A stretch of DNA of 17,608 nucleotides from an uncultured Deinococcales bacterium (GTDB taxonomy: Bacteria; Deinococcota; Deinococci; Deinococcales; JAAFIG01): contig CAXTTL010000090.1 of NCBI GenBank assembly GCA_964247135.1, forward strand, positions 1 through 17,608, given 5' to 3'. The translations under genes were made by a program, and so were the position numbers. Below are positions 378 to 17,608 of the stretch, in pieces; position 1 is the first letter of the stretch, and each line of letters starts with the position of its first letter. The notes below the pieces were generated by a model. It did no database searches and was not told the DNA's origin. It saw only the letters and a program-made list of their open reading frames with translations.

Positions 378-422
378 AACTTCACCGAGAACCCTCGAGC
401 CAATGCGGACATGATCGGCATT

Positions 423-2378: not shown

Positions 2379-2386
2379 GCGCCACT

Positions 2387-3019: not shown

Positions 3020-3082
3020 GAGGTTATCTTAAACGCCGCTCGGTGTGTACCGTGAGGATTCGATAAATTCGAGATCAGGATT

Positions 3083-3961
3083 TTAGGCTCGAGCAACGAC
3101 GATTTGGGTGCTTGGAAGCGTAAAAGGCAGTGCGTTCTCGTCGATGATTTCAAAGGCGTCTCGCCATTTGTCTTTTAAGAAATCAATCGTGTAAACCTGC
3201 CGCGTTAGGGGCGTAAAACCAGTCTGGTGCAGTAACTTCTCGAGATCATCGCCGTTCGCCCAACCAAAAATTTCGCCGACCTCAATGTCCCAGTTGGTTG
3301 CGTAAAAATATTTGGTGGCAAATTCGTAAAAATGACTCGCCTGCATGGTGCACAAATTTCCTTGCAGCGCAAACTCGAGTTTGAATGGTCTGAAGTCGTC
3401 GCTGAAGCGCCAAAAAATTTCTTGGAGTGCAGGATTTTTAAACCGAATCTGTAAGAACTGCGGCTCGAGCCTGACCCCGTCTCGAATGATTAACCTGCCG
3501 CCAGGGAGAAGTAAACTTTTCGCCAAACCAAAAATTTGTTTTGCCGCCACCAACATGGGCGACACGCCAGCCTCGAAAAAACGCTCGGGACGCTCGAGGG
3601 CGAAGGTGGCAAATTCGTGCAGGGCGCTGCACAAGATGACGCTCGAGAATTTTGGTTCGGTCAGCTTTTCTGGATGCTTGCACAACTCAAAAATATCCTG
3701 ACGGTAAAAACGAACCCGATCCCCAAGCTGTTTGGCGGCGGTTCCAAGCAATTTGGCGCTCAGGTCAATGCCGACCAATTCCAAAGTTGGATCACGAAGC
3801 TGCAACAACTCGAGCACCGCCCCCGAACCACAACCCAGTTCGAGCACTCGGTTGCCGGTCACAAACTCGAGCATTTTGGCTTTATCGGGTTTGCTCATAG
3901 CCATGCCAGCCACGTATTCCGACAGCCCCACGGCGTCGTGAACGTCGGCGCGGGTGCTCAT
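3083..3961 (-). CDS. Class I SAM-dependent methyltransferase (292 aa)
   Basis: Motif I VLELGCGSG, acidic LVGIDLS, SALHEF, and LLPGGRLIIRDG; start overlaps the upstream stop (ATGA). Confidence 0.9.
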   Translation of the reverse strand: MSTRADVHDAVGLSEYVAGMAMSKPDKAKMLEFVTGNRVLELGCGSGAVLELLQLRDPTLELVGIDLSAKLLGTAAKQLGDRVRFYRQDIFELCKHPEKLTEPKFSSVILCSALHEFATFALERPERFFEAGVSPMLVAAKQIFGLAKSLLLPGGRLIIRDGVRLEPQFLQIRFKNPALQEIFWRFSDDFRPFKLEFALQGNLCTMQASHFYEFATKYFYATNWDIEVGEIFGWANGDDLEKLLHQTGFTPLTRQVYTIDFLKDKWRDAFEIIDENALPFTLPSTQIVVARA

Positions 3962-4380
3962 AAATCATCAAACTCGAGCACAAAACCGGCTTCGATCTCA
4001 GCTTGCATTTTCTCGAGTTGCGCTGGGGTTGGAATGCTCAAGGACACAAAAGACCAACGTGCGATGCCGTCGTTCTGGTCTTTGCTCGCCTCGAGTTTGA
4101 CCACATGAAAAATCATGTTGCTGCCAAGCAAGCGCATTTCGCCAGGTTTGTTCCATGCTGCCAGTTCGCGCTTCAAAACGCTGATTTCGCCGCGCACCAC
4201 CCAAATTCTTCCAGTGCCGATCAGGTCGTTCAAGCCCGCTGGCGGTTTTCGACGGCGAAATTGGTCGCTGACCGCCTGGTCTTTGGTGCGTTTGTCGCGG
4301 GTGATGCTGAGGATGATGGCTTCCAGCAAAGGAATGCTGGTGTCAGCACCTTGAATGCGTGGATGGATTAAGCTCATCAT
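3958..4380 (-). CDS. Hypothetical protein (140 aa), translationally coupled to the methyltransferase
   Basis: GGAG about 10 nt before ATG at 4380 (ORF track extends to 4440); ATGA overlap with the next gene; fills the gap after aroH. No family recognised. Confidence 0.65.
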   Translation of the reverse strand: MMSLIHPRIQGADTSIPLLEAIILSITRDKRTKDQAVSDQFRRRKPPAGLNDLIGTGRIWVVRGEISVLKRELAAWNKPGEMRLLGSNMIFHVVKLEASKDQNDGIARWSFVSLSIPTPAQLEKMQAEIEAGFVLEFDDL

Positions 4381-4468
4381 GATTGCTTCACTCCGTTCGA
4401 TAGTACGACACCCTCGAGGTTTCACGGTGTTCATTTGCACTTTTGGCTTTTAAAAGTACAAATCTTGC

Positions 4469-4870
4469 TTACTGTGCGCTCTCGAGGTCGGGTCGCAGCA
4501 CCACGGCATCTCGGAGGTAAACGTGCCTGATGTCCTGTTGTTTTTTATCGGTGTTAAGGTGCATCATCACCCGAATGGCGCGTTGCAAACGCCCAGGCAC
4601 CGGAATCTCGAGGGCATTCAAGAGCGGCACGAATTTCATGTTCAACCCGTTTCTTGCGGCTTCGGCGGGAAAGGCGGCGTTCAAATCTGGGGTCACGGTA
4701 AAAATGATGCTGCACAAACCCTCGAGTTCTGCCGCCGACGGCGCATGTGGGTGTTCGCAGACCGAATTTTGGGCGAGCATTTCGATCAACAGTTCTTTGG
4801 TGGCGTCAAAAATTGCCTCTGGAGTGTTTTCAATTACCGTGGTTGCACCGCGAATGCCTCGCATCATCAT
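4469..4870 (-). CDS. aroH: AroH-class chorismate mutase
   Basis: [50 protein letters not shown] match the AroH family. Three tandem ATGs make the exact start uncertain. Confidence 0.96.
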
Positions 4871-4879
4871 GATGTTGCG

Positions 4880-4888
4880 AGTCTAACA
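4880..4888 (-). promoter_or_regulatory. Extended -10 element (TG-n-TAGACT) for aroH
   Basis: Minus strand reads gaTGtTAGACTcgcaacatcATG; no Shine-Dalgarno present. Confidence 0.55.
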
Positions 4889-4943
4889 TCACTTCCCAAA
4901 AGACGCACCTGGCTTGTTTAGCCCGATGCCTCGCGCTCGGATT

Positions 4944-4972
4944 TTGGAATTCATTCCCAAATGAATTAGAAT
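4944..4972 (+). promoter_or_regulatory. Sigma70-type promoter of mmsA/iolA with overlapping inverted repeat
   Basis: TTGGAA (4944-4949), 17 bp, TAGAAT (4967-4972); AATTCATT-N4-AATGAATT at 4948-4967. Confidence 0.6.
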
Positions 4973-5042
4973 CGATCAGCAAATCGAAAGTAATTTGAGC
5001 GTCAATCGAAACCAGTCACATGTTTTTATTCAGGAGGAAGCC

Positions 5043-6575
5043 ATGACCCTTGCCGCCGAACCGACCACACCTGCCACCCAAACTGCCAAACGAATTCACC
5101 ATTGGATCGCCGGAAAACCGCACGCCTCAACCTCTGGGCGCAGCGCCCCCGTGTACAATCCTGCCAGCGGCGAGATTCAGGCAACCGTCGATCTGGCGAG
5201 TGTCGAGGAAATCAGCCATGCCATCGCCACAGCCAAAGCCGCCTCGGTTGGTTGGAGGGTAACACCGCTCGCCCGCCGTGCGGAAATCATGTTCAAATTC
5301 CGCGAATTGCTCGACGCAAACCGCCAAGAGCTGGCGCACATCATCAGCCTCGAGCACGGCAAAGTGCCCAGCGATGCGCTGGGCGAAATCGCCCGAGGCT
5401 TGGAAAACGTCGAATTCGCCTGCGGCGTGCCGCACCTCTTGAAGGGCGGTTTTTCCGAACAGGTTTCTCGAGGGGTCGATGTTTACAGCATCCGTCAACC
5501 TTTGGGCGTGGTGGCTGGCATCACGCCCTTTAACTTTCCGGCGATGGTGCCGCTCTGGATGATCGCCAACGCCGTGGCTTGCGGCAACGCCTTTGTCTTA
5601 AAACCATCCGAAAAAGACCCGAGCGCCAGTTTGTTCATTGCCGAACTCTTGAAACGCGCCGGTCTTCCCGACGGCGTTCTGACCGTGATTCACGGCGATA
5701 AACTCGCGGTCGATACGATTCTCGAGCATCCAGATATCGCCGCCGTTTCGTTTGTCGGCAGCACGCCAATTGCCAAATACATTTACGAGACCGGAACCAA
5801 GCACGGCAAGCGCGTTCAAGCCTTGGGCGGCGCGAAAAACCACATGTTGCTGCTGCCCGACGCCGATGTCGAGATGGCAGCCGACGCCGCCGTCAGTGCC
5901 GCCTACGGCTCGGCAGGCGAACGCTGCATGGCGATTTCGGTGGTGGTCGCGGTGGGCAACGTTGCCGACCCAATGATCGAAGCCTTGCGCGCCAGGTTGC
6001 CAAAAATCAACGTTGGACCTGGCACCGACAAAGACGCCGAAATGGGACCACTCATCACCCGCGAACACCGCGACAAGGTTGCGGGGTATCTCGAGAGTGG
6101 GAAGGCTCAAGGCGCGACCCTGGTGGTCGATGGTCGTGACGCCGACATTGCCAAGTCAGACGGTTTTTTCTTGGGTGTCAGCTTGATGGATCACGTCACC
6201 GCTGACATGGATTCGTACAAAGACGAGATTTTTGGACCCGTCTTGCAAGTCGTTCGCGTCAACACCTATGAAGAAGGCTTGAAACTCATCAATGACAATC
6301 AGTACGGCAATGGGACGGCAATCTTTACCAGGGACGGCGGCGCGGCGCGGCAATTCCAATTCGATGTCAACGTCGGCATGGTCGGCATCAACGTGCCAAT
6401 TCCGGTGCCAGTCTCCTATTACAGCTTTGGCGGTTGGAAAGCCAGCTTGTTCGGCGACACGCACATGTACGGACCCGAAGGCATTTTGTTTTACACCAGG
6501 GGTAAAGTCGTCAGCTCGAGGTGGCCCGACCCGAGCACCTCAAAAGTCGATTTGGGCTTTCCGCAAAACCGTTAA
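5043..6575 (+). CDS. mmsA: CoA-acylating (methyl)malonate-semialdehyde dehydrogenase (MmsA/IolA), 510 aa
   Basis: ITPFNFPAMVPLW, LKPSEKDP, SFVGSTPIA, KRVQALGGAKNH, catalytic GERCMA, EIFGPVL, FGGWKASLFGD. Start placed at ATG 5043 after AGGAGG. Confidence 0.96.
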   Translation: MTLAAEPTTPATQTAKRIHHWIAGKPHASTSGRSAPVYNPASGEIQATVDLASVEEISHAIATAKAASVGWRVTPLARRAEIMFKFRELLDANRQELAHIISLEHGKVPSDALGEIARGLENVEFACGVPHLLKGGFSEQVSRGVDVYSIRQPLGVVAGITPFNFPAMVPLWMIANAVACGNAFVLKPSEKDPSASLFIAELLKRAGLPDGVLTVIHGDKLAVDTILEHPDIAAVSFVGSTPIAKYIYETGTKHGKRVQALGGAKNHMLLLPDADVEMAADAAVSAAYGSAGERCMAISVVVAVGNVADPMIEALRARLPKINVGPGTDKDAEMGPLITREHRDKVAGYLESGKAQGATLVVDGRDADIAKSDGFFLGVSLMDHVTADMDSYKDEIFGPVLQVVRVNTYEEGLKLINDNQYGNGTAIFTRDGGAARQFQFDVNVGMVGINVPIPVPVSYYSFGGWKASLFGDTHMYGPEGILFYTRGKVVSSRWPDPSTSKVDLGFPQNR

Positions 6576-6587
6576 TGACCATAAAAC

Positions 6588-6612
6588 AACCCTCGAGATC
6601 AACTCGAGGGTT
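6588..6612. terminator. Hairpin between convergent genes, probable bidirectional terminator
   Basis: AACCCTCGAG-atcaa-CTCGAGGGTT with A-rich left and T-rich right flanks. Confidence 0.7.
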
Positions 6613-6628
6613 TAACTTTAAGTTGTTT

Positions 6629-7447
6629 TTAGTGCTTGAGCAATGCGCCCAAAATTCCGGTCAAAATCGCGCCAGTGCTCGAGGCTCCAGCATCGCGTTG
6701 ACCGTTGGGGTGGGTCATGTTCGCGCCCTGGTTGACCGCACCCAACAGCGACCCAAGAATGTCCGCCATGCCACCGCCCTGGGATTGCCCGCCGCCAAGA
6801 ACGCTCCCGAGGATGCCGCCCAAGCCGCCAGCTTGTGGTTGTTGCGCTTGTTGAGGGTGCTGTCCGCCGCCGAGCAACCCACCGACAATATTGCCCAGCG
6901 CTCCGCCGGCGCTACCGCTGCCTCCGCCGAGCAGACTGCCCAAAACGTTGCCGAGTGCACCGCCCCCACCGCCATTGCCCATCAGGCTGCCGAGAATGCC
7001 GCCCACGTCCAAGCCGCCAGGCGCCTGCTGACTGCCGCCTGTTAACATCCCCAAAAGTGGTCCCAGTGCGCCCAAAGGACCAACTTGATCGACCCCCCTG
7101 GTGTCATGGTTCGCAATGCCTGCGCCCAAGGCGCCGACAATTGGCGCGACATCTTGCGGGGTCAATTGATTTGGGTGCCCCTGATATTGTTGTGCCGCCT
7201 GCGTGAAGGCGTCCGAGTACGCTTTGGAGGTAAAACCGCTCGAGCTGTTCCCGATGGCTTGAGCCGCCGCTTGAAACTGCGTGCCCAGATCGGCATTCGG
7301 GTCGCTCGAGGTGGCTTGCTGCGCGGCTTGAAATTTTGCCAACACGTCCGAACCGTGGGTTGGATGGGCTGGATCGGCTGAATTGAGTGATTGTTCTTGG
7401 GTTTTAAGCTGGTCGACCACATTGCCAAGTACGTCTTGAAGTGTCAT
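6629..7447 (-). CDS. Gly-rich protein with degenerate DAK2/DhaL-like domain (272 aa)
   Basis: GGAAGGA before ATG 7447. SLNSADPAHPTHG, SSSGFTSKAYSDAF and RDAGASS resemble DhaL-type motifs, split by repeated LGGILGSLLGG segments. Confidence 0.65.
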   Translation of the reverse strand: MTLQDVLGNVVDQLKTQEQSLNSADPAHPTHGSDVLAKFQAAQQATSSDPNADLGTQFQAAAQAIGNSSSGFTSKAYSDAFTQAAQQYQGHPNQLTPQDVAPIVGALGAGIANHDTRGVDQVGPLGALGPLLGMLTGGSQQAPGGLDVGGILGSLMGNGGGGGALGNVLGSLLGGGSGSAGGALGNIVGGLLGGGQHPQQAQQPQAGGLGGILGSVLGGGQSQGGGMADILGSLLGAVNQGANMTHPNGQRDAGASSTGAILTGILGALLKH

Positions 7448-7667
7448 GGAAAATCCTTCCGTCATACCGCAAATTTCTTCTCGAACCTCGAGCAACCTCG
7501 AGACGATCAAAGGTTTACGGATACGAAATCCTAGCACCGATTGAATCAGTCCGTGAAGACTTTGAATTTGAAGAATTCTTAAAACTTATGGGGGAAGGTT
7601 ATGGCTTTATTTTGTCCAAGAAATATTTGATTTGAGTCCAAACCACTTCACAAAGTGGTCTGGAAAC

Positions 7668-7697
7668 TTGACACGCTTTCAACCCTCGAGATAACCT
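7668..7697 (+). promoter_or_regulatory. Sigma70-type promoter of the sugar ABC operon
   Basis: TTGACA (7668-7673), 18 bp, TAACCT (7692-7697); flanked by inverted repeats at 7642-7659 and 7725-7749. Confidence 0.6.
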
Positions 7698-7814
7698 CAT
7701 GGAACTGCTCAGCATAGCGATTTTCGTTACGAACTTTTTGTTTGTAACGCTCGGGTGTTTCCCGAGGGGTTTTAAGCCTGAATTGTGGCTCGAGGAGAAC
7801 CTGAGGAGGTTCGT

Positions 7815-9086
7815 ATGAAACGAAAGCTGTTAATGGGACTCGTGGGGCTGGGCATGGCTGCCGGTTTGGCTGGCGTCGTGGCTCAAAGTGGAACTGGCAA
7901 ATTGGTCTACAATTCGGACGCGTCCGATCCAGCACCGAAAGCTTACGATCAAAAGATTGTCGCGCAGTTTAAAGCCAAATACCCAGGCATCGACATGACG
8001 CACAACACCGTCGATCATGAAAGCTTTAAGCAAGCCATTCGCACCTACCTCGCCAGCGACAATCCACCAGATGTTCTGACCTGGTTCGCCGGAAACCGGA
8101 TGCGTTTCTTCTCGAGCAAAGACCTGGCTGCCGACATTGGTTCGGTCTGGAAAGACAACGGCTGGGAAAAGACCTTTCCAAAGGGCTTCCAAGCGCTGTC
8201 TCAGGACAAAGGCAAGTACGTCTTCTTGCCAACCAGCTACTACTGGTGGGCAATGTATTACCGCAAGGACATCTTCCAGAAATTGGGCTTGAAGGAAGCC
8301 AAAACCTGGCCAGAATTTTTGGGCCTGTGCCGCTCGCTCAACAAGGCAGGCGTCACGCCAATCATGACCGGCTCGAAGTTCCTGTGGCCACTGGGCGGCT
8401 GGTTTGATTTCTTGGACATGCGCGTCAACGGACCACAGTTTCACGTCGACGTGACCGACGGCAAAATCAAGTACACCGACAGCCGCGTCCGCAAAGTCTT
8501 TAGCTACTGGAAGCAACTGCTGGACAACAAATGCTTCCTCGAGAACAGCGCCAGCTACGACTGGCAAGACGCCGCGCAGCTCATGACCCAAGGCAAGGGC
8601 GCGATGTACCTGATGGGCGATTTCATCCGCGACCAATGGAAAGACGGACTGGAAGCCAGCCAACTTGACTTCTTCCGTTTCCCAATCATCAACGCCAAGT
8701 TGCCAGTCGGCGAAGAAGCCCCAACCGACGGATTCTTTGTGCCAGCCAAAGCGCCAAATATTGCCAACGCCAAACTCTTCATGGGTTACCTTGGCAGCAA
8801 GGAAGCCATGGAGCAAGGCGCCAAAGAACTCGGTCGTTTGGTTCCACGCAGCGATGTGGACAAAGCACTTTATGCCAGCAAGCCACAAATTGCCAAAGCC
8901 CAAGCCACCGTCATCGAACCAGCCGATTACATCGCGCAGTTCTATGACCGCGACACCGACCCAGAAATGGCGAACATCGGCATGAAAGGCTTCCAACAAT
9001 TCATGCAAGACCCAAGCCAACTCTCGAGCATCCTCAAGAACCTCGAAGCCACCCGTGAACGAATTTACGGTAAAATCACCCAGTAA
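7815..9086 (+). CDS. Carbohydrate ABC transporter substrate-binding protein (family 1), 423 aa
   Basis: GAGGAGG then ATG 7815; signal peptide; PPDVLTW, YYRKDIFQKLG, PEFLGLC, GKGAMYLMGDF; followed by two CUT1 permeases. Confidence 0.93.
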   Translation: MKRKLLMGLVGLGMAAGLAGVVAQSGTGKLVYNSDASDPAPKAYDQKIVAQFKAKYPGIDMTHNTVDHESFKQAIRTYLASDNPPDVLTWFAGNRMRFFSSKDLAADIGSVWKDNGWEKTFPKGFQALSQDKGKYVFLPTSYYWWAMYYRKDIFQKLGLKEAKTWPEFLGLCRSLNKAGVTPIMTGSKFLWPLGGWFDFLDMRVNGPQFHVDVTDGKIKYTDSRVRKVFSYWKQLLDNKCFLENSASYDWQDAAQLMTQGKGAMYLMGDFIRDQWKDGLEASQLDFFRFPIINAKLPVGEEAPTDGFFVPAKAPNIANAKLFMGYLGSKEAMEQGAKELGRLVPRSDVDKALYASKPQIAKAQATVIEPADYIAQFYDRDTDPEMANIGMKGFQQFMQDPSQLSSILKNLEATRERIYGKITQ

Positions 9087-9099
9087 GACTTAATGCGGG

Positions 9100-9138
9100 A
9101 ATCCCGCTCGGGGGTCATCTCGGGCGGGATTTTATTTT
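9100..9138 (+). terminator. Intrinsic terminator/attenuator hairpin after the binding-protein gene
   Basis: AATCCCGCTCGGG…CTCGGGCGGGATT followed by TTATTTT. Confidence 0.7.
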
Positions 9139-9283
9139 CAAAACAGACCCTGAATCCAAAATCTGGTTATTTTGCTAAGACAAGAGTAGACTTCAAAAGT
9201 ACAAAATTAGAAATTTCGTTGAATAGCACACCCTCGAGAAACCGTTCACTCCATGTTCAAAACTCGAGATCAAAGGAGGTTTT

Positions 9284-10246
9284 ATGGCTCTGGCAAGCAG
9301 GCGCACCCGAAGCGCAAATTATCAGACTTTGGCGCTCAACCGCTTCTTGGTGATCTTCTCGTTTTTAGCGGTTCCATTGGGACTTTACATGGTTTGGGTG
9401 CTGTGGCCCACCCTTTACACTTTCTACTTGTCACTGACCAACTGGGATTCTTTTACGCCACCCGTTTTTGCGGGATTTGAAAACTACAAAAACCTATTTT
9501 CAGACCCAGAATTTCAACACGCCATCATCAACAATGCCATCTGGATTTTGGTCTTTATCACCGTGCCGACAGCCGCAGGTTTGGCACTGGCGACGGTGTT
9601 GAACAACAACTTGCGGTTTGACCGTTTCTTAAAGGTCGCGTATTTCCTGCCAATGGTGATTGCTCCAGTGATTATCGCGCTGATCTGGAGTTGGATTTAC
9701 CTTCCCCAACAGGGATTGTTAAACGCTTTTATCAATCAAGTGCTTCAATTGCTCAAAACCCTTGGTTTTAACGTCGATCCCAAAGCGGCATACAGCATTG
9801 GTTGGCTCGGCGATCCCAAACTGGCACTGATTGCCGTGATGGCACCTGCGGTCTGGCGGCAAACGGGTTATGTCATGATTCTGTATTTGGCTGGTCTAAA
9901 AACCGTTGACGCCGAAGTGGTCGAAGCCGCCAAAGTGGATGGCGCGACTGGCTGGAGCATGTTCAGGTACGTGATTTTCCCGATGCTCTCGCCGGTCACC
10001 ACCATCGTGGTGGTGGTCTCAATCATCGACTCCTTGCGGTCGTTTGACATCGTCAACGTCATGACCAAAGGTGGTCCGGTCAGCGCCACCGAAGTTCTGG
10101 CAAATTACATGTACGTCAAATCTTTCGATGACAACAGACTCGGTTACGGCGCTGCGATTGCCGTGGTGCTCTTTGGATTTGCCTTAATTTTCGTCATGAT
10201 GTACTTGCGCCAAGTCATGGCACAGGAAGACGAGGGAACAGCATGA
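9284..10246 (+). CDS. Carbohydrate ABC transporter permease (MalF/UgpA type)
   Basis: AGGAGG RBS; FAGFENY, YFLPMVIAPV, EAA loop EAAKVDGA, TKGGP; multiple transmembrane helices. Confidence 0.95.
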   Translation: MALASRRTRSANYQTLALNRFLVIFSFLAVPLGLYMVWVLWPTLYTFYLSLTNWDSFTPPVFAGFENYKNLFSDPEFQHAIINNAIWILVFITVPTAAGLALATVLNNNLRFDRFLKVAYFLPMVIAPVIIALIWSWIYLPQQGLLNAFINQVLQLLKTLGFNVDPKAAYSIGWLGDPKLALIAVMAPAVWRQTGYVMILYLAGLKTVDAEVVEAAKVDGATGWSMFRYVIFPMLSPVTTIVVVVSIIDSLRSFDIVNVMTKGGPVSATEVLANYMYVKSFDDNRLGYGAAIAVVLFGFALIFVMMYLRQVMAQEDEGTA

Positions 10247-11118
10247 GCCTAGCCCAACCCGCCCAAGTCAACAAAGTCGTCCGCGAGAAAAAAATTCGCA
10301 AGGGCGTTCATCCCGCCGTGATTTTCATCGTCTGGTTTTTTGCGCTGTTGTGGCTCGTTCCAATCGTCGGCGCTTTCCTGACCGCCTTCAGAACCTTTGA
10401 TGACCTCAACGAATTTGGCTTGTTCAGCATTCCACACGTGTTCACACTCGATAACTTCACCAGGGCTTGGAATCAAGCCAACCTTGGGCAATTCATGCTC
10501 AACAGCTTCATCATCACCATCCCAAGCCTGACCGCCTGCGTTTTACTCTCGAGCATGTGCGCTTATGCCCTGGTGCGTTTCCGCTTTGCCCTCGCACGAC
10601 CCTTGTACATGATGTTCGTGGCGGGGTTGATGCTGCCATTTCAAATGCTCCTTCTACCCGTTTTTAAGCTCTCGAGCCAACTTCATATTTACAATACCTA
10701 CTGGTCACTGATTTTGATTCACACCGCGTTTCAACTTGGGTTTTGCAGCTTTGTGTTGCGCAACTTCATGCGCACCGTCCCGCCAAGTTTGTTTGAATCC
10801 GCCGTGATCGACGGCGCAACCGAATGGGTGATTTTCCGCCGCATCGCATTCCCGCTGATGCTACCTGGTCTTGCTGCACTCGCCACGCTCGAGTTCACCT
10901 GGATTTTCAATGATTTCCTCTGGGCGCTGGTACTCATTCAGGACACGCACCTGAAGCCAGTCACGACTGGTCTGGCGAACTTGCGCGGGCAGTTCACCAC
11001 CGATTACCCACTGATTGTCGCTGGAAGCCTTGTGGCGACCATTCCGACATTGATTGTGTTCTTTGGGTTGCAACGCTATTTTATTCAAGGTTTAACGGTT
11101 GGTGCGACCAAGGGTTAA
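10243..11118 (+). CDS. Carbohydrate ABC transporter permease (MalG/UgpE type)
   Basis: ATGA overlap; FTLDNF, AYALVRFRF, ESAVIDGA, WIFNDFLW, QRYFIQGLTVGATKG. Confidence 0.95.
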   Translation: MSLAQPAQVNKVVREKKIRKGVHPAVIFIVWFFALLWLVPIVGAFLTAFRTFDDLNEFGLFSIPHVFTLDNFTRAWNQANLGQFMLNSFIITIPSLTACVLLSSMCAYALVRFRFALARPLYMMFVAGLMLPFQMLLLPVFKLSSQLHIYNTYWSLILIHTAFQLGFCSFVLRNFMRTVPPSLFESAVIDGATEWVIFRRIAFPLMLPGLAALATLEFTWIFNDFLWALVLIQDTHLKPVTTGLANLRGQFTTDYPLIVAGSLVATIPTLIVFFGLQRYFIQGLTVGATKG

Positions 11119-11131
11119 ATTCTCGAGCATC

Positions 11132-11177
11132 AAAAAGAATCTCGAGCTTTGGATATTTCAAGGCTCGAGATTTACTT

Positions 11178-11178
<1 letters not shown>
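11132..11178. terminator. Bidirectional terminator between the ABC operon and tRNA-Gly
   Basis: Stem AATCTCGAGCTTT (11138-11150) / AAGGCTCGAGATT (11160-11172) with T-rich tails on both strands. Confidence 0.7.
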
Positions 11179-11253
<75 letters not shown>

Positions 11254-11263
11254 GATCTTCTCG

Positions 11264-11292
11264 AGTTTAGCGAGTTACGCGCTTTCGTGCAA
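11264..11292 (-). promoter_or_regulatory. Dedicated promoter for tRNA-Gly
   Basis: TTGCAC, 17 bp, TAAACT ending 10 nt before the tRNA. Confidence 0.7.
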
Positions 11293-11297
11293 GTATC

Positions 11298-11328
11298 AAA
11301 AAAAAGAATCTCGAGCGCAAACTCGAGA
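11298..11328 (-). terminator. Intrinsic terminator after tRNA-Tyr
   Basis: Minus strand TCTCGAGT-ttgc-GCTCGAGA followed by TTC and a T8 run. Confidence 0.75.
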
Positions 11329-11332
11329 AACG

Positions 11333-11417
11333 TGGTGGGCAGGGATGGATTCGAACCATCGTACGCTATGCGAACGGATTTACAGTCCGTCTCCTTTAAC
11401 CACTCGGACACCTACCC
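11333..11417 (-). tRNA. tRNA-Tyr (GTA)
   Basis: GGGTAGGTGTCCGAGTGGTTAAAGGAG-ACGGA-CTGTAAA-TCCGT, long variable arm, GGTTCGAATCC, ends CCA; 85 nt. Confidence 0.97.
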
Positions 11418-11448
11418 AAGGTGCAATTTCAAATCAAACACTAGCTCT

Positions 11449-11525
11449 TGGAGCCACCCATCGGAATCGAACCGACAACCTTCCGATTACAAATCGGGTG
11501 CTCTACCGGATTGAGCTAGAGTGGC
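11449..11525 (-). tRNA. tRNA-Thr (TGT)
   Basis: GCCACTCTAGCTCAATCCGGTAGAGCA-CCCGA-TTTGTAA-TCGGA…GGTTCGATTCC…GGGTGGCTCCA; 77 nt. Confidence 0.96.
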
Positions 11526-11567
11526 AAAAAACCGTTAAAACCCGAACAGTTTCCCGCTCGGTCTGAG

Positions 11568-11596
11568 ACTTTAACACCGTGGTTCGCACGTGTCAA
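11568..11596 (-). promoter_or_regulatory. Promoter of tRNA-Thr/tRNA-Tyr
   Basis: TTGACA, 17 bp, TAAAGT. Confidence 0.8.
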
Positions 11597-11606
11597 GCAT
11601 TTTTCA

Positions 11607-11635
11607 TTGACGGTTGGGAAAATCACTGATACACT
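11607..11635 (+). promoter_or_regulatory. Promoter of tRNA-Ser, back-to-back with the Thr-Tyr promoter
   Basis: TTGACG, 17 bp, TACACT. Confidence 0.8.
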
Positions 11636-11663
11636 CGGACGCGCTCGAGAATCGGGTTACACT

Positions 11664-11753
11664 GGAGAGGTGTCCGAGCGGTTTAAGGAGCACGCCTGGA
11701 AAGTGTGTGTATGGGAAACTGTACCGAGAGTTCGAATCTCTCCCTCTCCGCCA
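11664..11753 (+). tRNA. tRNA-Ser (GGA)
   Basis: GGAGAGGTGTCCGAGCGGTTTAAGGAG-CACGC-CTGGAAA-GTGTG, long variable arm, GTTCGAATC, CCTCTCCGCCA; 90 nt. Confidence 0.97.
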
Positions 11754-11779
11754 AAAATGTTGTACAGCACGGCATTTTG

Positions 11780-11823
11780 AAATCAGACCCTCGAGTGTAA
11801 TTTGTCTCGAGGGTCTGATTTTT
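11780..11823 (+). terminator. Intrinsic terminator after tRNA-Ser
   Basis: 16-bp stem AAATCAGACCCTCGAG / CTCGAGGGTCTGATTT running into a T tract. Confidence 0.85.
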
Positions 11824-11962
11824 GCTGTTTTCGGGAGTTTTTCGGGAGATAGAAATTTTGTCCAATATTTTTAACTCGAGTTTGCCTGAAAATCAAAGAC
11901 GTTGGCATCTCGAGATGCCGTGATTCCCAAAATTGCTATTTTGGGACTGCGTTAAAGGTAGT

Positions 11963-12653
11963 GTGATTAACCTTTCTATTTTTACGCGAGAAACCTTCAC
12001 GATGCCTTTTGAGTACGCTCAAGGTTTAAAACGTGGAATGCAGTTGTATCAAGGCAGAACATGTGGTAATGTGAAGTATGACTTCGAGGGGTTGGCGCTT
12101 ACGTGAACTGGCTGTGAAATTTAATTCACAGCATTATGCGCGTGACGATAGATTGTTGCGCCACAGTGATCATTGTGGCGGTTTTGCATCTGAGCACCCT
12201 GGATTTTATGATTTTGAAGAAGATATTTTTTCAGCGACTCCTAATGAATCTCCAGAAATAAATGATCCTATGCGCGATAAGCAGGAAAAATTTAGACTTC
12301 GGGTGTTCCCTGATGTTTTTTAAAAGAAAAAGGGTTATAGGCGTTTAAATAGAAAGAGATTAACAGCTTGGGCAAATTATCTTTGGAAAGAAGAAAGCGC
12401 TAGTTTTAAAAAAAATATTGTTTCAAAATCTTTGGGAGATAGTGATCCCAAAGATTTCGGTCTAAATCTTGCTGAATGGTTTGGCAATAATTTTATTTTG
12501 ATCTTGAATATGTTCGCGTCATTTATTCTTTTTCGTAAAATTTACGTTGATGAACGGGTGACTAACTTTGAGTTTGAAGTAAATACACAACCCATTTATT
12601 CGCTATTTGAGATTCACCCACAAATACAATCAACTTGCGCTCCTAACGTCTGA
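11963..12653 (+). pseudogene. AT-rich hypothetical gene interrupted by a nonsense codon and probably a frameshift
   Basis: ORFs 12078-12323 and 12432-12653 share a frame separated only by TAA at 12321-12323. An upstream ORF, GTG 11963 to TGA 12106, overlaps in another frame. Confidence 0.55.
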
Positions 12654-12719
12654 GAACACACGGTTATCGCCTTGTGTTTCTCACCTCGAGTATTTATTGC
12701 TCGAGTGTACGTTAGGAGC
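12639..12719 (+). promoter_or_regulatory. Structured 5' leader (three-way junction) hiding the RBS of the HTH gene
   Basis: 11-bp perfect closing stem GCTCCTAACGT/ACGTTAGGAGC enclosing two hairpins; TACAAT at 12625-12630 just upstream. Confidence 0.6.
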
Positions 12720-12725
12720 TTTTAA

Positions 12726-12956
12726 TTGAATAGTCCATTAAATCCGCAAGTTATCACGGTTAAAGCTTACTTTGGTGTGTCAGACGTTGCAGAACGTTGG
12801 GGGGTGCATCAAAACTTCGTTTACAATTTGATTAAGGGTGGTGAGCTTCCTTGCCTTCACCTTGGCAACCCCGGAACAAAACGCCCTGTAATTCGCATCC
12901 CACTTATTTCACTTGAGGCTTGGGAAGCAAATCAACTCACCAAAGGGCAAAAATAA
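12726..12956 (+). CDS. Excisionase/AlpA-like winged HTH protein (HTH_17 type), 76 aa
   Basis: YFGVSDVAERWGVHQNFVYNLIKGGELPCLHLG…IRIPLISLEAW; AGGAG 7 nt before TTG. Confidence 0.88.
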   Translation: MNSPLNPQVITVKAYFGVSDVAERWGVHQNFVYNLIKGGELPCLHLGNPGTKRPVIRIPLISLEAWEANQLTKGQK

Positions 12957-13102
12957 TGCTCCGTGCTGTTAACACGGAGTTCTCGAGTACGGGGCACTTG
13001 ATTGTACCATCTCGAGCGTTAAGGCTTGTCCCATTTGGGACAGGCAAGGTTCAAATCCTCGTTTTTAGCTTGCTAAATTTGGAGGTACAACATGGCGCGT
13101 GA
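12956..13102 (+). CDS. Putative 48-aa leader/coupling peptide
   Basis: ATG overlaps the HTH stop (TAATG); frame stays open across the whole spacer and ends 11 nt inside the primase gene. Confidence 0.4.
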   Translation: MLRAVNTEFSSTGHLIVPSRALRLVPFGTGKVQILVFSLLNLEVQHGA

Positions 13103-15410
13103 TGATTTGCGTGATGCGTTGCAGTCCGACGCTAACAGCATCCCCGCACTTCTCGAGAGTTTTGGAGTTGATACTTCTCGCTTGACTACAAATGGTGGTG
13201 TGATGCTTGACCCGCGTCCAGGGCATGAAGAAAGCAATCCTAGCTTTTCGGTATTTCGAGGAACTGATGGTGTGTGGTTGTACAAACGTCACGGCGATGA
13301 TGGCGACAGTGGAAACGCATTTGATTTAGTAAAAGCATTTAACAAAACGTCCGGTGAGGCGGCGCAAACGCTGAAAGATCGCGCTGGGGGTAACACCGTG
13401 TCACACGCCCCGCGTTCTCTTTCGCTTGCAAAAACTGTACCGAAACCCAAGCCAAAACCCATTTACAAACCCGTGAGTCCCACACTCTCTGTCAAGCTCG
13501 AGAAAGCACAGCACGCTTTGGCAGGACTCGAAACCTTGCCCGACTGCTTGACCGCTCGAGGTTTTGATGCTGCGATGTGTGAGGTTTACGGTTTGGGACT
13601 CGAGAATGACGCGGTACTCATCCCAATTTATCGCGGCGCTGACTTGGTGCAAATCAAACAACGCAATCCAAACAGAGAACAACCGCGTTACAAATATCTC
13701 GAGCCAGGGCATGGCGCACCCGCATGGTTAAGCCCTGATTATGCAAACCCGACAACTCGAGCCGTGCTGATTGTTGAGGGCGAATTCAACGGACACGCGG
13801 CACACGCGGCGCTCGAGAATGCGGGTTTGAGCCTTGCCGTTCAGGGTGTCGGAGGTGTGAAAAATCAATTGCACCTCGAGCAGCTTTCAGGACGTGATGT
13901 TTTCGTGTACGCCGATGGTGACGAACCAGGAGGCAAAGCGGCACAAAAATGGGCAGCACTGGCACAAGAAAACGGTGCAAGCCAAGTCAAGATTCTCGAG
14001 CCACTGCCAGAACTCCAAGACTTTTGTGATTTGCTCGGCACGAGCGGCGCTGATGGTCTTAGCACATGGTTACAAAACGCTTTTGTTGAAGCACAAACAT
14101 TTGAACCTGATTCGTTCGAGGACAATAGTCTTAATTCGGGCGCTGATGAAAACGGATTCCCAGAACTCGCAGAAGAGGCATTGTATGGACTGGCTGGCGA
14201 TGTTGTCCGAGCGATTGAACCAACAACAGAAGCACACCGCGCCGCGCTTCTATTTTCGTTTTTCGTAGCTGTAGGAATTGCACTTGGAACAAAACCACAT
14301 TGGAAAATTAGCGGCGTAATGCACACTTTGCGTTTGTTTATCGTTCTTATCGGATTGAGTGGCAAGGGTCGCAAAGGCACGTCTTGGGGTGCTTTACGCG
14401 GTGTTACCGAAACCGCATTTGGTGATGATTTTTATGCCGAACACGTCACAACTGGACTGAGTAGCGGTGAAGGTTTGATTTATGCCGTGCGTGATGCCGT
14501 GCAAAAGCCTATGACCAGAGACGGCAAGGTTGAACTGCAAATCGTTGATGAGGGCGTTGCCGATAAACGCTTGGTCGTTCTCGAGTCTGAGTTTGGGCGC
14601 GTGTTGAAAGTCATGAACCGTGAAGGTAGCACCTTGTCACCAATTATTCGGCAAGCTTGGGAAATTGGTGCAAAAGATAATTTGCGCGTAATGACGAAAA
14701 ATTCAACCACGGCAACGGGCGCACACGTTGGAATTGTTGGACACTGCACCCGTGATGAGTTGTTAAGGTATCTCGAGGATACCGAAACGGCAAATGGTTT
14801 TGCGAATCGTTTCCTTTGGGTGATGACCAAACGCGCTCGAGTCTTGCCTTTCGGGGGAGAACCGAACCAGCACGTAATGAACAAGCTTGGTGAGCGCCTG
14901 AAAGCCGTGGCGATGTGGCTCGAAGGTACAGATGGTGTCCTGTACTGGGGCGAACAAACAAAACCTCTTTGGGCGAGTATCTACCCTGACTTAAGTGAAG
15001 GCTCGAGCGGTTTAAGCGGTGCGGTTACATCTCGAGCCGAAAGTTATGTCATGCGCCTTGCGGGATTATACGCGGTGTTAGACAAGTCACTCGAGGTCAA
15101 ACCCGAACACCTCACAGCGGCACAGGCATCTTGGGAATACTGCGAAGAGTCGGTGTTTAACATCTTTGGAAGGCGCACGGGCGATGTTGTCGCAGATGCG
15201 ATTCTGGAAGCACTGAAAGCACATGCCGATAAACGCCTGACCAAGACCGAAATTTCAGCTTTGTTTCAACGAAACCAAAGCGCGGGACAGATTGATCGTG
15301 CTACCCAGGTACTTGTCCGAGATGGCAAAGCCCGAATGACAAAAGGTGAGTCTAAGAACGGCGGTAAAGCACCTCAGATTTTGGAATTGCTGGGTATGCA
15401 ATATGGGTAA
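13092..15410 (+). CDS. Primase-helicase fusion: degenerate CHC2-like domain, Toprim, DUF3987/YfjI-like ATPase (772 aa)
   Basis: GGAGG RBS; PGHEESNPSFSV; Toprim VLIVEGE…YADGDEPG…DFCD; P-loop GLSGKGRKGTS, SSGEGLI, LESEFG, NGFANRFLW; possible C-terminal winged helix. Confidence 0.88.
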   Translation: MARDDLRDALQSDANSIPALLESFGVDTSRLTTNGGVMLDPRPGHEESNPSFSVFRGTDGVWLYKRHGDDGDSGNAFDLVKAFNKTSGEAAQTLKDRAGGNTVSHAPRSLSLAKTVPKPKPKPIYKPVSPTLSVKLEKAQHALAGLETLPDCLTARGFDAAMCEVYGLGLENDAVLIPIYRGADLVQIKQRNPNREQPRYKYLEPGHGAPAWLSPDYANPTTRAVLIVEGEFNGHAAHAALENAGLSLAVQGVGGVKNQLHLEQLSGRDVFVYADGDEPGGKAAQKWAALAQENGASQVKILEPLPELQDFCDLLGTSGADGLSTWLQNAFVEAQTFEPDSFEDNSLNSGADENGFPELAEEALYGLAGDVVRAIEPTTEAHRAALLFSFFVAVGIALGTKPHWKISGVMHTLRLFIVLIGLSGKGRKGTSWGALRGVTETAFGDDFYAEHVTTGLSSGEGLIYAVRDAVQKPMTRDGKVELQIVDEGVADKRLVVLESEFGRVLKVMNREGSTLSPIIRQAWEIGAKDNLRVMTKNSTTATGAHVGIVGHCTRDELLRYLEDTETANGFANRFLWVMTKRARVLPFGGEPNQHVMNKLGERLKAVAMWLEGTDGVLYWGEQTKPLWASIYPDLSEGSSGLSGAVTSRAESYVMRLAGLYAVLDKSLEVKPEHLTAAQASWEYCEESVFNIFGRRTGDVVADAILEALKAHADKRLTKTEISALFQRNQSAGQIDRATQVLVRDGKARMTKGESKNGGKAPQILELLGMQYG

Positions 15411-15969
15411 GTTGCTCGAGCGTATCAAAGCTCAATTGATGACCCGTTACGAAAAAGACGAAATTGACGAAATAACCGTCAATCAAAAGGCAAACACTTT
15501 TGCTGAGGTTACGAAATTGGATTCACGCCCTCCAAACCCTGTAGTACCTGAACCTAATTTCGTAAACCCTCAAAACTTGGGGAGTGTTTCAGGCACAGCT
15601 ATTTCGTCACATTCGTTAAATTCGCTCAATGAACGTCAGAGCATTCCTCAAACGCTCGAGCTTCCCTTAAGTGAGTTTGATTCCAAGGTTATTGTTCCAT
15701 CTGTTTTTACATCCCCTTGGACTGCATTCCGTGACAGCGTGGAGCGTGTCTGGGGCTTACTCCAAGCCAAAGGGACACGCACCGTTCACTTGGTCGGTGA
15801 CGGTCAACGTGTTGCAACGCACTTCACGGCTCGAGATGCAAACCAATTGAAGGCGCTGGCTGACTCAGGCGAGAAGGCATACCCAAGCATCAGGACTTTA
15901 GGGGTTATCCCAGTCTTGCCCGATATGGTCATGCTCGAGTTCACCACGCAAAGCCAAGCACAAGCCTAA
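15403..15969 (+). CDS. Hypothetical protein (188 aa) overlapping the iteron array
   Basis: ATG 15403 overlaps the primase stop by 8 nt. No family recognised. Confidence 0.6.
   Translation: MGKLLERIKAQLMTRYEKDEIDEITVNQKANTFAEVTKLDSRPPNPVVPEPNFVNPQNLGSVSGTAISSHSLNSLNERQSIPQTLELPLSEFDSKVIVPSVFTSPWTAFRDSVERVWGLLQAKGTRTVHLVGDGQRVATHFTARDANQLKALADSGEKAYPSIRTLGVIPVLPDMVMLEFTTQSQAQA
15449..15625. repeat. Convergent iteron array, putative replication origin
   Basis: ACGAAA at 15449, 15458, 15467, 15511; inverted copies TTTCGT 15558 and 15602, ATTCGT 15611, ATTCGC 15620. Confidence 0.75.
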
Positions 15970-15980
15970 CCCTGTCCGTA

Positions 15981-16011
15981 TTGGCACACCGTCACCGTGA
16001 CGGTGTGCCAA
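15981..16011. repeat. Perfect 31-bp palindrome
   Basis: TTGGCACACCGTCAC-C-GTGACGGTGTGCCAA; 15-bp arms, intergenic, no T tract. Confidence 0.9.
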
Positions 16012-16047
16012 GCACCCAAGACCCCCACTCAATCAAAGGAACAAATC

Positions 16048-16458
16048 ATGTCATTGATAAGAACACCCAACTTAGACGTTCGCAGAATCATTGGTGAAGG
16101 TAGAAACTTCTTTTTGGTCTTGAAGATTCGGTTTCACGTCTGGGCGTACAAACGCAAACTCAACTCGAGACTTCAAACCCAGAAACGTTCCAAGCAGAAA
16201 CTAGCGGATCGTTGGCAGTCTCTCGAGTTAGACCAAAAGCAACTTGTGCCTTGCTTAACGGGGCTTGCTTTGACTGAACATATTCAAGTTTTACATGACT
16301 TTGAATGCAGCAATCAAGACTTAGAAGCAGGATTGCTCGAGCAGCTTGCTCGAATGGACTGGTTGCTTTGCGACATGAAAAACAAACCGTGTTCAGACCG
16401 TGCCGAACTCGAGCAACTGCTTGAAATGATCCTCAAGATTCGGGCGGTAGGTTCTTGA
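16048..16458 (+). CDS. Hypothetical helical/coiled-coil protein (136 aa)
   Basis: AAAGGA 7 nt before ATG 16048; Leu/Glu/Gln-rich C-terminal half. Confidence 0.6.
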   Translation: MSLIRTPNLDVRRIIGEGRNFFLVLKIRFHVWAYKRKLNSRLQTQKRSKQKLADRWQSLELDQKQLVPCLTGLALTEHIQVLHDFECSNQDLEAGLLEQLARMDWLLCDMKNKPCSDRAELEQLLEMILKIRAVGS

Positions 16459-16724
16459 GTCTCGAGCAGACCATCAATAACATTCACGGGTTGCTGTTAA
16501 CCCTCGAGCGGTGCGCCCGTGTTGGCTTTCAGAACGACTTAGAACCCGCTCGAGCCTTAACGGTAGTGTCTGAACTCCGTATTGATTTTGGTTTGATGCT
16601 TGGGTGCGTTCCAGAGTTCACAGCCGAACAATTGATTGAGTTCCATATTGATCTTGCAGAGTTTCTAACAAGACTCGAGGCTCGAGTATCACCCTTGCTC
16701 ACGGTTAAGTCTTGCATCGCTTGA
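16455..16724 (+). CDS. Hypothetical helical protein (89 aa)
   Basis: TTGA start/stop overlap with the previous gene; amphipathic helical pattern. Confidence 0.55.
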   Translation: MSLEQTINNIHGLLLTLERCARVGFQNDLEPARALTVVSELRIDFGLMLGCVPEFTAEQLIEFHIDLAEFLTRLEARVSPLLTVKSCIA

Positions 16725-16811
16725 CGCTCGAGCATAGCAAGATTCTCAATCTTGGTTTATGTCGCAATTTCGCAGAAACCAAACAAAGTGAATCAAAAGA
16801 ATTGAGGTTAC

Positions 16812-17165
16812 ATGTCAAACAAACAACGTTTAGAACGTACAACTCCCCTGAATTGGGGCGGTGTACGGGAAAAGAGTGGTAGAAGAAAGTTAGCCCCTTC
16901 CTCGAGCGTCCGAATTGACCGTGAATTGCTCAGGCAAGTTAGGCGGTTCATGCGGTTTAACGGCAATCCTCGAGAGTTGGTTGAATGCGCCGTGAGGAAG
17001 GAATTACTCGAGCGTCAAACGGCTCGAGATGCACACCTCCGAGTTGTGGCACTCGGAATGTACGAGCGTAACAAAGCAAACGGGCGAGCATCCTCAGCAT
17101 TAGTGCGGAAGCTTGTCGCCGATGCGCAACGTGAGGATACCCCCCAGCATAAAAACGCGATTTAA
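16812..17165 (+). CDS. Putative ribbon-helix-helix DNA-binding protein (117 aa)
   Basis: WGGVREKSGR motif then SVRIDRELLRQVRRF…PRELVECAVRKELL (strand-helix-helix); GAGG before ATG. Confidence 0.65.
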   Translation: MSNKQRLERTTPLNWGGVREKSGRRKLAPSSSVRIDRELLRQVRRFMRFNGNPRELVECAVRKELLERQTARDAHLRVVALGMYERNKANGRASSALVRKLVADAQREDTPQHKNAI

Positions 17166-17233
17166 CTGGGTCGGGGAGCAGGGTATGAGTATCCAACCGC
17201 TCACCGAATTTTTAGAATTTTTGAAACTTTAGG

Positions 17234-17275
17234 CTCGAGGTTGTCCAGACAGTGGACAACCTCGAGTTATTTTTT
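17234..17275 (+). terminator. Intrinsic terminator after the RHH gene
   Basis: 14-bp stem CTCGAGGTTGTCCA / TGGACAACCTCGAG then TTATTTTTT. Confidence 0.8.
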
Positions 17276-17419
17276 GCTGGAAAGACCCACCCCTCTAGGT
17301 AGAAGCTATCCAGTTGCTGTCAGAATTTTTAGAGTTTTTGGTTTGAAATTTTTAGGCTCCCCGAGTACAAAACCGTTACTCGAGACGGTAAAAACTACGT
17401 TCAACGGTATTATCATGCG

Positions 17420-17608
17420 GTGCAAACCAACACCGCGCTCGAGCAACACCCATCAGGTGAAATTCCATCTGTACCACTTCCCGCAGGGTTTATTTCACTG
17501 GCGCAACACGCCACCCTAAACACGTATGACGAAAACCTCAACCAAATTTTCAGAGCTTTGCGCGTGTTTAATCCTGACAAACTCGAGCACTTAACCAAAC
17601 CGGAACTT
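17420..17608 (+). CDS. Possible hypothetical protein, 5' part (runs off window end)
   Basis: Frame open from 17333 to the end. First canonical start is GTG 17420, 6 nt after TATTAT; translates MQTNTALEQHPSGEIPSVPLPAGFISLAQHATLNTYDENLNQIFRALRVFNPDKLEHLTKPEL. Confidence 0.4.
   Translation, partial: MQTNTALEQHPSGEIPSVPLPAGFISLAQHATLNTYDENLNQIFRALRVFNPDKLEHLTKPEL

Follow-up and report, generated by a model that had tools for sequence, protein, structure and literature searches.

A conserved three-way RNA junction ahead of an excisionase-like gene in an island of uncultured Deinococcales: a probable case of translational coupling

We analysed a 17,608-nt stretch of DNA from an uncultured Deinococcales bacterium (assembly GCA_964247135.1, contig CAXTTL010000090.1, positions 1 to 17,608; hereafter the window), and in particular a predicted three-way RNA junction between two genes on its plus strand. 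Upstream of the junction lies an open reading frame (ORF) that we named orfU. In the window, it consists of two halves in one frame: a 5' part (12078..12323), which starts MTSRGWR... and is ended by an in-frame TAA at 12321-12323, and a 3' part (12324..12653) with 109 open codons up to a TGA at 12651-12653, the last 11 codons reading PQIQSTCAPNV. The list of open reading frames gives 12432..12653, ending at the same TGA. Downstream, at 12726..12956, a gene with a TTG start encodes a 76-aa excisionase/AlpA-like protein that matches Pfam HTH_17 (1.5e-9) and phrog_66, 'excisionase and transcriptional regulator' (5e-5). Judging by these matches it is an excisionase-or-regulator homologue, and we refer to it as the helix-turn-helix (HTH) gene.

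The junction connects these two genes. The 5' arm of its closing helix, P1 (12639..12649), is made of the last four orfU sense codons (GCT CCT AAC GT-) and includes CUCC, resembling an anti-Shine-Dalgarno sequence. The P2 hairpin (12651..12683) begins with the orfU stop codon, TGA being its first three bases, and the P3 hairpin (12685..12705) consists of two copies of CTCGAG, a palindrome found genome-wide, plus two inner pairs. The 3' arm of P1 (12709..12719) holds the Shine-Dalgarno (SD) sequence AGGAG (12714-12718), which lies 7 nt ahead of the TTG start and 61 nt 3' of the orfU stop. The whole spacer from the orfU stop to the HTH start measures 72 nt in the window and 57-123 nt among the relatives described below.

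The junction had been proposed in an initial annotation of this DNA, whose description of it proved accurate. The two P1 arms, GCTCCTAACGT (12639-12649) and ACGTTAGGAGC (12709-12719), form an 11-nt perfect inverted repeat (I13), direct reading of the sequence places AGGAG at 12714-12718, TTG at 12726 and TGA at 12651-12653, as described, and the arrangement of P1, P2 and P3 is exactly the structure that RNAfold returns for 12632-12728. This 97-nt fold has a minimum free energy (MFE) of -42.7 kcal/mol, and none of 200 dinucleotide shuffles folds as well (mean -19.1, sd 3.1; z = -7.54). Within it, P2 contains a single bulge and is extended by 3 bp at its apex, and P3 has 8 bp. Taken singly, the parts say less: an 11-nt repeat alone is not rare, as the window contains 13 inverted-repeat pairs of at least 11 nt within 120 nt, and P3 on its own is weak evidence, being two copies of the abundant CTCGAG. 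The junction is more than chance because its three helices are nested and because they are conserved in relatives. Two further pairings did not share this conservation and were rejected. A P0 extension (ACTTGCG with CGCAAGT in the HTH gene) is predicted in the window, but its partner is missing in three of the related loci (L058, L049 and L060), and a long-range pairing of TACAATCAA (12625-12633) with TTGATTGTA (12998-13006) appears only in the MFE structure of the window, not in the centroid, and is not conserved among loci.

To place the junction among other genomes, we built a covariance model (R1) on two sequences, that of the window and that of a relative 91% identical to it. The relatives are metagenome-assembled genomes (MAGs) of uncultured Deinococcales belonging to one family of 19 genomes, and R1 finds the junction as a single copy per genome in seven of them. 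Over 151 genomes of the order, the model returned the same seven only (0/132 outside the family). By blastn, the leader is found in six other genomes among the 19, with homology starting near 12600-12614, and the same search over 363 genomes of the order returned nothing beyond the seven. Pattern scans gave a similar picture, with 0 matches in two scans of metagenome contigs and one of viral contigs, and only the six known relatives in a scan of genome contigs. The initial annotation could not assign the structure to a known RNA family, and neither could we: the junction has no Rfam match at gathering score or at E up to 10, the latter search covering 12400-13150. An Rfam match to FsrA on the minus strand at 12426-12496 was set aside, its 24.7 bits being far under the gathering score of 80.

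All seven sequences fold individually into the same junction, at -32.4 to -43.7 kcal/mol. In an alignment of the seven fitted to the model (A5), standard pairs fill 93.1% of 217 pair cells (94% in P2 and 96% in P3), compared with 33-47% when the partners are slid by 1-3 columns. Both sides have changed in four pairs, two of them in P1, one in P2 and one in P3, and the covariation score is 0.217 vs 0.159 in column shuffles, with 0/500 shuffles reaching it. Both covarying P1 pairs are third positions of orfU codons, one of the Ala codon and one of the Pro codon; the latter pair is U-A, A-U or C-G among the seven and G-C in a diverged locus, L074. The inner P3 pair 76:82 is A-U in four loci and U-A in two. 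G-U cells outnumber A-C cells by 22 to 3, which indicates that the plus strand is the strand that folds.

This asymmetry bears on the idea that the element is not an RNA at all, but a DNA-level site (an origin, a recombination site or a CTCGAG operator) or a by-product of the CTCGAG repeat. CTCGAG is indeed about 30-fold over-represented and forms P3, and pairs of it a few bases apart are common in the window (I4, I6 and I12). However, G-U exceeds A-C on the plus strand, compensatory changes occur in P1 and P2, which hold no CTCGAG, and the SD sequence and start codon keep a fixed distance of 4-8 nt. There are also no iterons, and attachment (att) sites lie elsewhere, as 46-nt repeats in genomes G005 and G018 and as a 61-nt repeat in G000, the genome of the window. 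We therefore consider a DNA-level explanation very improbable.

Outside the helices, the junction and loop bases differ in both sequence and length among the seven loci, with J3/1 ranging from 3 to 7 nt. Such variable junctions and loops look unlike a ligand pocket, and a ligand-binding three-way-junction riboswitch was rejected on these grounds together with the lack of an Rfam match. An RNA thermometer of the ROSE or fourU type was also rejected, given the 11 perfect pairs of P1, the stability of the whole fold and, again, no Rfam match.

What the seven loci do share is the end of orfU. In 7/7 loci, the orfU frame takes in the conserved 5' region together with the P1 5' arm and ends at the same TGA, with which P2 begins. 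All seven share the C-terminal tail (PPLEY-)PQIQ(T/S/A)TCAPN(V/A), which is loosely conserved in three more. Open orfU frames are 126-194 codons long in five loci, lengths that only 0-1 of 5000 shuffles match; the 109-codon frame of the window is matched by 8/5000, and the 71-codon frame of L049, which lies on a truncated contig, by 71/5000. Over the last 11 codons, third positions vary at 6/11 sites vs 2/22 for first and second positions (one-sided Fisher p = 0.008). By this pattern, the P1 5' arm and the conserved 5' region are orfU coding sequence. The body of orfU, meanwhile, is hypervariable: in a multiple alignment, it is 18-49% identical to the L044 sequence, and the window and L044 share 83/186 aligned residues. 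A protein-word search with the tail returned only two already known proteins, the best Atlas score for orfU was 0.86 with no family, and a single-sequence AlphaFold2 model was unusable, with a mean predicted local distance difference test (pLDDT) score of 34.

The coding status of this region also affects a promoter that the initial annotation had placed there. The proposed -10 element, TACAAT at 12625-12630, is present but lies inside the orfU codons ATA-CAA-TCA. Only the window has the final T, the other loci having TACAAA (four), TACAAG (one) and TCCAAA (one), and a sigma-70 consensus scan calls no site there. Over 11700-13200, the scan calls no minus-strand site and only two plus-strand sites, where shuffles lead one to expect 3.0. 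The idea of a transcript starting just before P1 thus found no backing.

Two mechanisms that would join orfU to the HTH protein directly were also rejected. Translational bypass of the T4 gene 60 type is contradicted by the last sense codon, which varies (GTC, GCC, GTT or GCT), by the frame relation between orfU and the HTH gene, which is not conserved (in frame in four of five loci but not in the other), and by the window sequence, on reading which no in-frame landing codon was seen. Read-through of the orfU stop into the HTH gene fails in the window, where the frame is closed by a TAA at 12723-12725, and the frame is open in L057 only. In that locus (8698-8790, genome G005), the orfU TGA is the sole stop between the orfU and HTH frames.

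Translational coupling by RNA unfolding is marked by an upstream ORF in the same orientation, the translated part of which supplies one strand of the inhibitory helix, and this is the arrangement that we find at this locus. Our preferred reading, which we hold with somewhat better than even confidence, is that the junction is an mRNA structure coupling translation of the HTH gene to translation of orfU by RNA unfolding. We infer that the two genes would share a transcript, that ribosomes would open P1, and that HTH output would depend on orfU translation. In line with what had first been proposed, the SD sequence is predicted to be sequestered, with a P(unpaired) of 0.000-0.022 in the free leader of 7/7 loci. 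When only the RNA 3' of stop+12 is folded, this value becomes 0.05-0.44 in the seven loci, in an equilibrium model that is indicative only. The role first suggested for the structure, keeping excision and replication off, is conjectural, the HTH gene being known by homology only. Several ways of opening the structure had been suggested, and one of them, ribosomes ending the upstream ORF, has comparative support: the ORF ends at or next to the P1 5' arm in the seven loci and in three diverged ones.

The proposed mechanism would work as follows. In free mRNA, P1 would pair the orfU codons Ala-Pro-Asn-Val, with their anti-SD-like CUCC, to the SD sequence of the HTH gene and so block de novo initiation. 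A ribosome arriving at the orfU stop would cover the P1 5' arm and enter P2. The SD sequence 61 nt downstream would then be freed, so that a new 30S subunit, or the terminating ribosome, could start at TTG 12726. P2 and P3 may serve to compact the spacer; by holding its 72 nt together, they would allow P1 to close quickly once no ribosome is present. An 'RNA unfolding' model of coupling, with the +52 nt spacing of rpmI-rplT as an example, is described in a 2025 review (PMC12548453), which also considers this model more plausible when the spacing lets a second ribosome bind.

To see whether the arrangement extends beyond the canonical junction, we searched the family with the HTH protein and found 11 loci in 9/19 genomes. 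Five have canonical leaders, three lack the orfU tail (L075, L076 and L079) and three have a diverged tail. Among the latter, L074 has the tail RPTLMTCAPNA followed by TGA, and forms a three-way junction with an unrelated P2 and with CUCCGAA/UUCGGAG as P1. In L078, the tail PAIQPNAPSYC ends at TAG, and the fold is larger and branched, with a 123-nt spacer. L077, with the tail PAIQPVAPNA and a TAA stop, has a single hairpin in which GCC-UAA-AAAAG pairs with the SD region, and a 57-nt spacer. R1 gives 14.2 bits (E 0.13) for L074, and an alignment including the diverged loci (A7) was mostly noise and left out of the counts. In MFE folds, the partners of the SD sequence lie inside orfU coding sequence in 10/10 loci, and all of them within 16 nt of the end of the stop codon in 9/10. 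The stop codon occupies the same structural position in 9/10 loci, and the SD-to-start distance is 4-8 nt.

Two of the seven canonical loci, L049 and L060, depart in another way: the tail and junction precede a different, strongly acidic 59-aa ORF instead of the HTH gene. The device therefore accompanies the orfU end rather than the HTH protein. The L049/L060 arrangement may be a remnant or a separate two-gene cassette. In these loci (L049, G013:C140; L060, G015:C464, 770-1397, minus strand), a terminator-like hairpin follows the acidic ORF. In L060, the pair adjoins a putative ribosome hibernation factor gene; no tRNA was called on its contig, and no integrase-like ORF was seen there on reading.

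In a second reading, the junction is a stand-alone riboregulator that keeps the HTH gene off until a factor acting in trans opens or cuts it, the position of the orfU stop being incidental. Such a factor could be an antisense RNA encoded in cis, a helicase or RNA-binding protein, a product of a helper phage, or a small ligand. The structure is certainly very stable and conserved, and it retains P2 and P3 although P1 alone would suffice for coupling. Variable loops are even compatible with a cis-antisense RNA, which would co-vary automatically. However, junctions and loops are conserved in neither sequence nor length, Rfam offers no match even at E up to 10, the minus strand of 11700-13200 received no promoter-like call (from a consensus scan only), and the complementary strand would fold worse, given 22 G-U against 3 A-C cells. 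A stand-alone riboregulator also leaves unexplained both the position of the stop (9/10 loci) and the pairing of the SD sequence with orfU codons (10/10). We regard it as unlikely. An antisense RNA or helper factor as the opener had been among the first suggestions for this locus, and the absence of an Rfam match, the lack of a minus-strand call in the consensus scan and the unconserved loops and junctions leave it unsupported.

In plasmid R1 (tap-repA) and in IncI-alpha and IncB plasmids (repY-repZ), translation of a gene that sets off the replication or regulatory cascade of a mobile element needs ribosomes that finish an upstream ORF, the end of which lies in an SD-sequestering structure; the leaders are short peptides under the control of cis-antisense RNA, and IncI-alpha also needs a pseudoknot. 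Here, in contrast, the upstream ORF is 125-194 codons long. As to an antisense RNA, a consensus scan only was run, and it called no minus-strand promoter-like site. The initial annotation had also drawn a functional parallel to P4 CI and P1 C4 RNA. The likeness is that P4 CI and the C4 RNA of P1 and P7 represent control at the RNA level in a small integrative element with a primase-type replication gene. Both are, however, small RNAs released by processing, with repeated complementary targets on which they act in trans, whereas we saw no repeated complementary copies of the arms besides P1 itself, and found no match at E up to 10 in Rfam, which we take to hold a C4 model. The analogy thus found no support.

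A third reading needs no switch at all. The junction could be a constitutive damper, setting HTH translation at a low fixed level, or an element of mRNA processing or stability (an RNase site or a protective structure), in either case acting unconditionally. A P1 of 10-11 bp within a fold of -32 to -44 kcal/mol in the seven loci would suit this role, and excisionase/AlpA-type regulators are typically needed in small amounts. On the other hand, an SD sequence permanently closed at a P(unpaired) of 0.02 or less would nearly silence the gene. A damper also fails to explain why the partner of the SD sequence is always the translated end of orfU, or why the frame and stop position of orfU are kept while its body diverges. 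A role of this unconditional kind thus seems quite unlikely.

The tail of orfU raises one more possibility, a special case of coupling in which it acts as an arrest peptide: given some signal, the ribosome would pause at the stop or close to it and so hold P1 open. In SecM-secA, MifM-yidC2 and TnaC, a conserved C-terminal peptide of an upstream ORF lies beside a stem that hides the downstream SD sequence, and the geometry here, with the stop in a stem and the SD sequence downstream, matches such arrest systems. The tail is also the sole conserved part of an otherwise hypervariable protein, and its PQIQxT codons lie upstream of P1 and are unpaired in the consensus. In these codons, third positions vary at 3/6 sites vs 1/12 for the others, a difference that is not significant (p = 0.08). 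Unlike those of SecM, MifM and TnaC, the orfU tail contains no arrest motif that we recognised, and the diverged loci retain it only loosely (RPTLMTCAPNA, PAIQPNAPSYC and PAIQPVAPNA). Moreover, its best-kept codons, Ala-Pro, pair with the SD sequence, so that a constraint on the RNA can explain them. An arrest-peptide switch, in which any stall is hypothetical, is thus decidedly improbable. A long shot along these lines is that the tail (PPLEY-PQIQTTCAPNV-stop) is a regulatory nascent peptide that pauses the ribosome on the stop codon, at the base of P2, on a cellular or phage-derived cue. If true, hypervariable orfU would be a sensor ORF deciding whether the regulator of island excision and replication is made, and a mobile element would be under the control of an arrest-peptide switch not described before.

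Coupling by RNA unfolding remains our preferred reading, but a number of observations weigh against it. The first concern orfU itself, the body of which shows almost no bias by codon position (69, 56 and 78 differences at first, second and third positions) and has no significant Pfam or PHROG match. A look for RNA runs that cover the region found none. The comparative evidence comes from only 10 loci, all of them in MAGs of one family and mutually related. Alignment A5 was fitted to the model, and its column shuffles are already 90.3% paired; the count of two-sided pairs is reached by 13/500 shuffles, and a covarying P1 pair is mismatched in two loci (L057 and L058). In the diverged loci, the L077 hairpin is no better than shuffles (z -0.6), and the extended fold of L074 pairs three SD bases further upstream, at -31 to -33. 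The HTH gene of L057 lacks a canonical start, with ATA at the usual start position. The modelled ribosome frees the SD sequence only partly, to the 0.05-0.44 given above. Finally, coupling usually weakens with distance, and the spacer here is 57-123 nt, while structure just past the stop can lower coupling, and P2 begins at the stop (both effects are noted in PMC12548453).

The window itself adds a further difficulty, as orfU is interrupted there by the in-frame TAA at 12321-12323, 330 nt upstream of its TGA. This TAA aligns with a TCA (Ser) codon of the intact 186-aa orfU in L044, the closest relative, and it is either a nonsense mutation or an assembly error. On reading the sequence, no SD-like sequence was seen before the later candidate starts, TTG 12432 and ATG 12510. 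If the TAA is real and coupling is obligatory, the window copy would be expected to yield little HTH protein, and the island might be trapped at its site.

The principle behind the preferred reading is well established. In the 'Min Jou' interaction between the coat and replicase genes of phage MS2, a helix hiding the downstream initiation site is melted when the upstream gene is translated. The MS2 coat-lysis pair is described in the same terms in PMC12548453. The MS2 helices are long-range or overlapping within the RNA of a viral genome, whereas the present junction is local and lies between two cistrons of a DNA element. A closer parallel is rpmI-rplT (L35-L20, E. coli infC operon), where, according to the same review, the downstream SD sequence pairs with translated sequence of the upstream cistron, and the upstream ribosome opens the structure across a long spacer (+52 nt) without occluding the downstream site. 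The present locus differs from rpmI-rplT in its compact three-way junction, in a stop codon that forms the first bases of P2, in its 72-nt spacer and in its setting on a mobile island ahead of an excisionase-like regulator; the two are unrelated by sequence or Rfam, and here the dependence on upstream translation is a prediction. Upstream ORF translation is also reported to be needed to expose a structured initiation region in the intergenic ORF of Salmonella mgtA (PMC8092293) and the upstream ORF (uORF) of iraD (PMC5574718), although these are short regulatory ORFs in the 5' leaders of chromosomal genes.

The coupling mechanism itself is thus textbook material, and what is new is the setting and an RNA structure outside Rfam, in a narrow uncultured lineage. 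If the preferred reading is true, the locus is a clean natural case of long-spacer translational coupling via a defined, covarying three-way junction, and it adds an RNA structure family that Rfam lacks. The first regulator of the island would be gated by translation of a fast-evolving upstream gene. The locus would also provide a compact test case for the debate between RNA unfolding and ribosome scanning, because the stop codon lies inside a helix and the SD sequence is 61 nt away. Its general significance would nonetheless be modest, with a textbook mechanism and a family confined to one uncultured lineage.

The surrounding genes are those of an integrated island. A tRNA-Ser(gga) gene called by ARAGORN lies at 11664..11753 on the plus strand, and its 3' part is the probable attachment site at the left border of the island. 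On contig C158 of the same genome, a 61-nt copy of this 3' part (97% identical) adjoins a tyrosine integrase (Pfam Phage_integrase 4.3e-20), which indicates that the window holds the left part of the island. Downstream of the HTH gene on the plus strand, a 772-aa primase-helicase, the replication gene of the island, is encoded at 13092..15410; it matches PHROG 239 (1.8e-11), 47, 849 and 5311, and scores 21.9 bits for Toprim_2, just below the cutoff of 22.1. Two relatives show the whole element. The one in G005 spans about 7.6 kb between direct repeats (46 nt) of the 3' end of tRNA-Ala(cgc), in the order att, orfU, junction, HTH gene, DUF3987 helicase (3.3e-79), other genes, integrase (5.4e-23) and tRNA. 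In G018, 46-nt tRNA-Ala(ggc) repeats flank about 8.4 kb on one contig with the same gene order, an integrase-sized ORF being the candidate integrase. Just inside both ends of the G005 island, which carries L057, there is a 24-nt direct repeat (8099-8122 and 15430-15453; a tandem of GTTCCGCAT), and these repeats may be arm-type sites of the integrase.

The palindrome CTCGAG is highly iterated in this lineage. The window has 107 copies vs 3.3 expected, with a maximum of 11 in 200 shuffles, and its density in seven other loci (L057, L058, L059, L060, L074, L077 and L078) is 4.3-7.9 copies per kb. Coding and intergenic DNA both contain it, and the window has none between 11914 and 12685. In the literature searched, nothing contained both 'CTCGAG' and 'highly iterated palindrome'.

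The spacer between the HTH and primase genes (12957-13062) contains a hairpin that starts from the HTH stop codon (12959..12979, plus strand, directly 3' of the stop). Relatives have the same hairpin with other sequences: it is also present in L044, L059 and L058, and its stems vary by locus (CTCCGTG/CACGGAG, GCCGCGC/GCGCGGC and GTCCCGCGC/GCGCGGGAC), pointing to conservation of the structure. L057, in which the next ORF abuts, lacks it. On the minus strand, the hairpin scores as terminator-like. The window has additional hairpins at 12982-13016 and 13029-13048.

Further downstream, the ribosome-binding site (RBS) region of the primase gene at 13055-13090 (…TAAATTTGGAGGTACAACATG) shares 86% identity, across 36 nt, with that of an unrelated gene found on contig C277; this match also occurs in three related genomes. 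A T-arm-like GGTTCAAATCC at about 13055 was considered as a tRNA-derived feature and rejected, as its 36-nt matches elsewhere are the RBS regions of other genes and no tRNA was called in the three loci checked. Beyond the primase gene, the window contains a perfect 15-nt inverted repeat with a 1-nt spacer at 15981-16011 (TTGGCACACCGTCAC / GTGACGGTGTGCCAA). It bridges the gap between the ORFs at 15346-15969 and 15997-16458, its right arm covering the GTG start of the latter, and it could serve the island as an operator or as some other site of protein binding.

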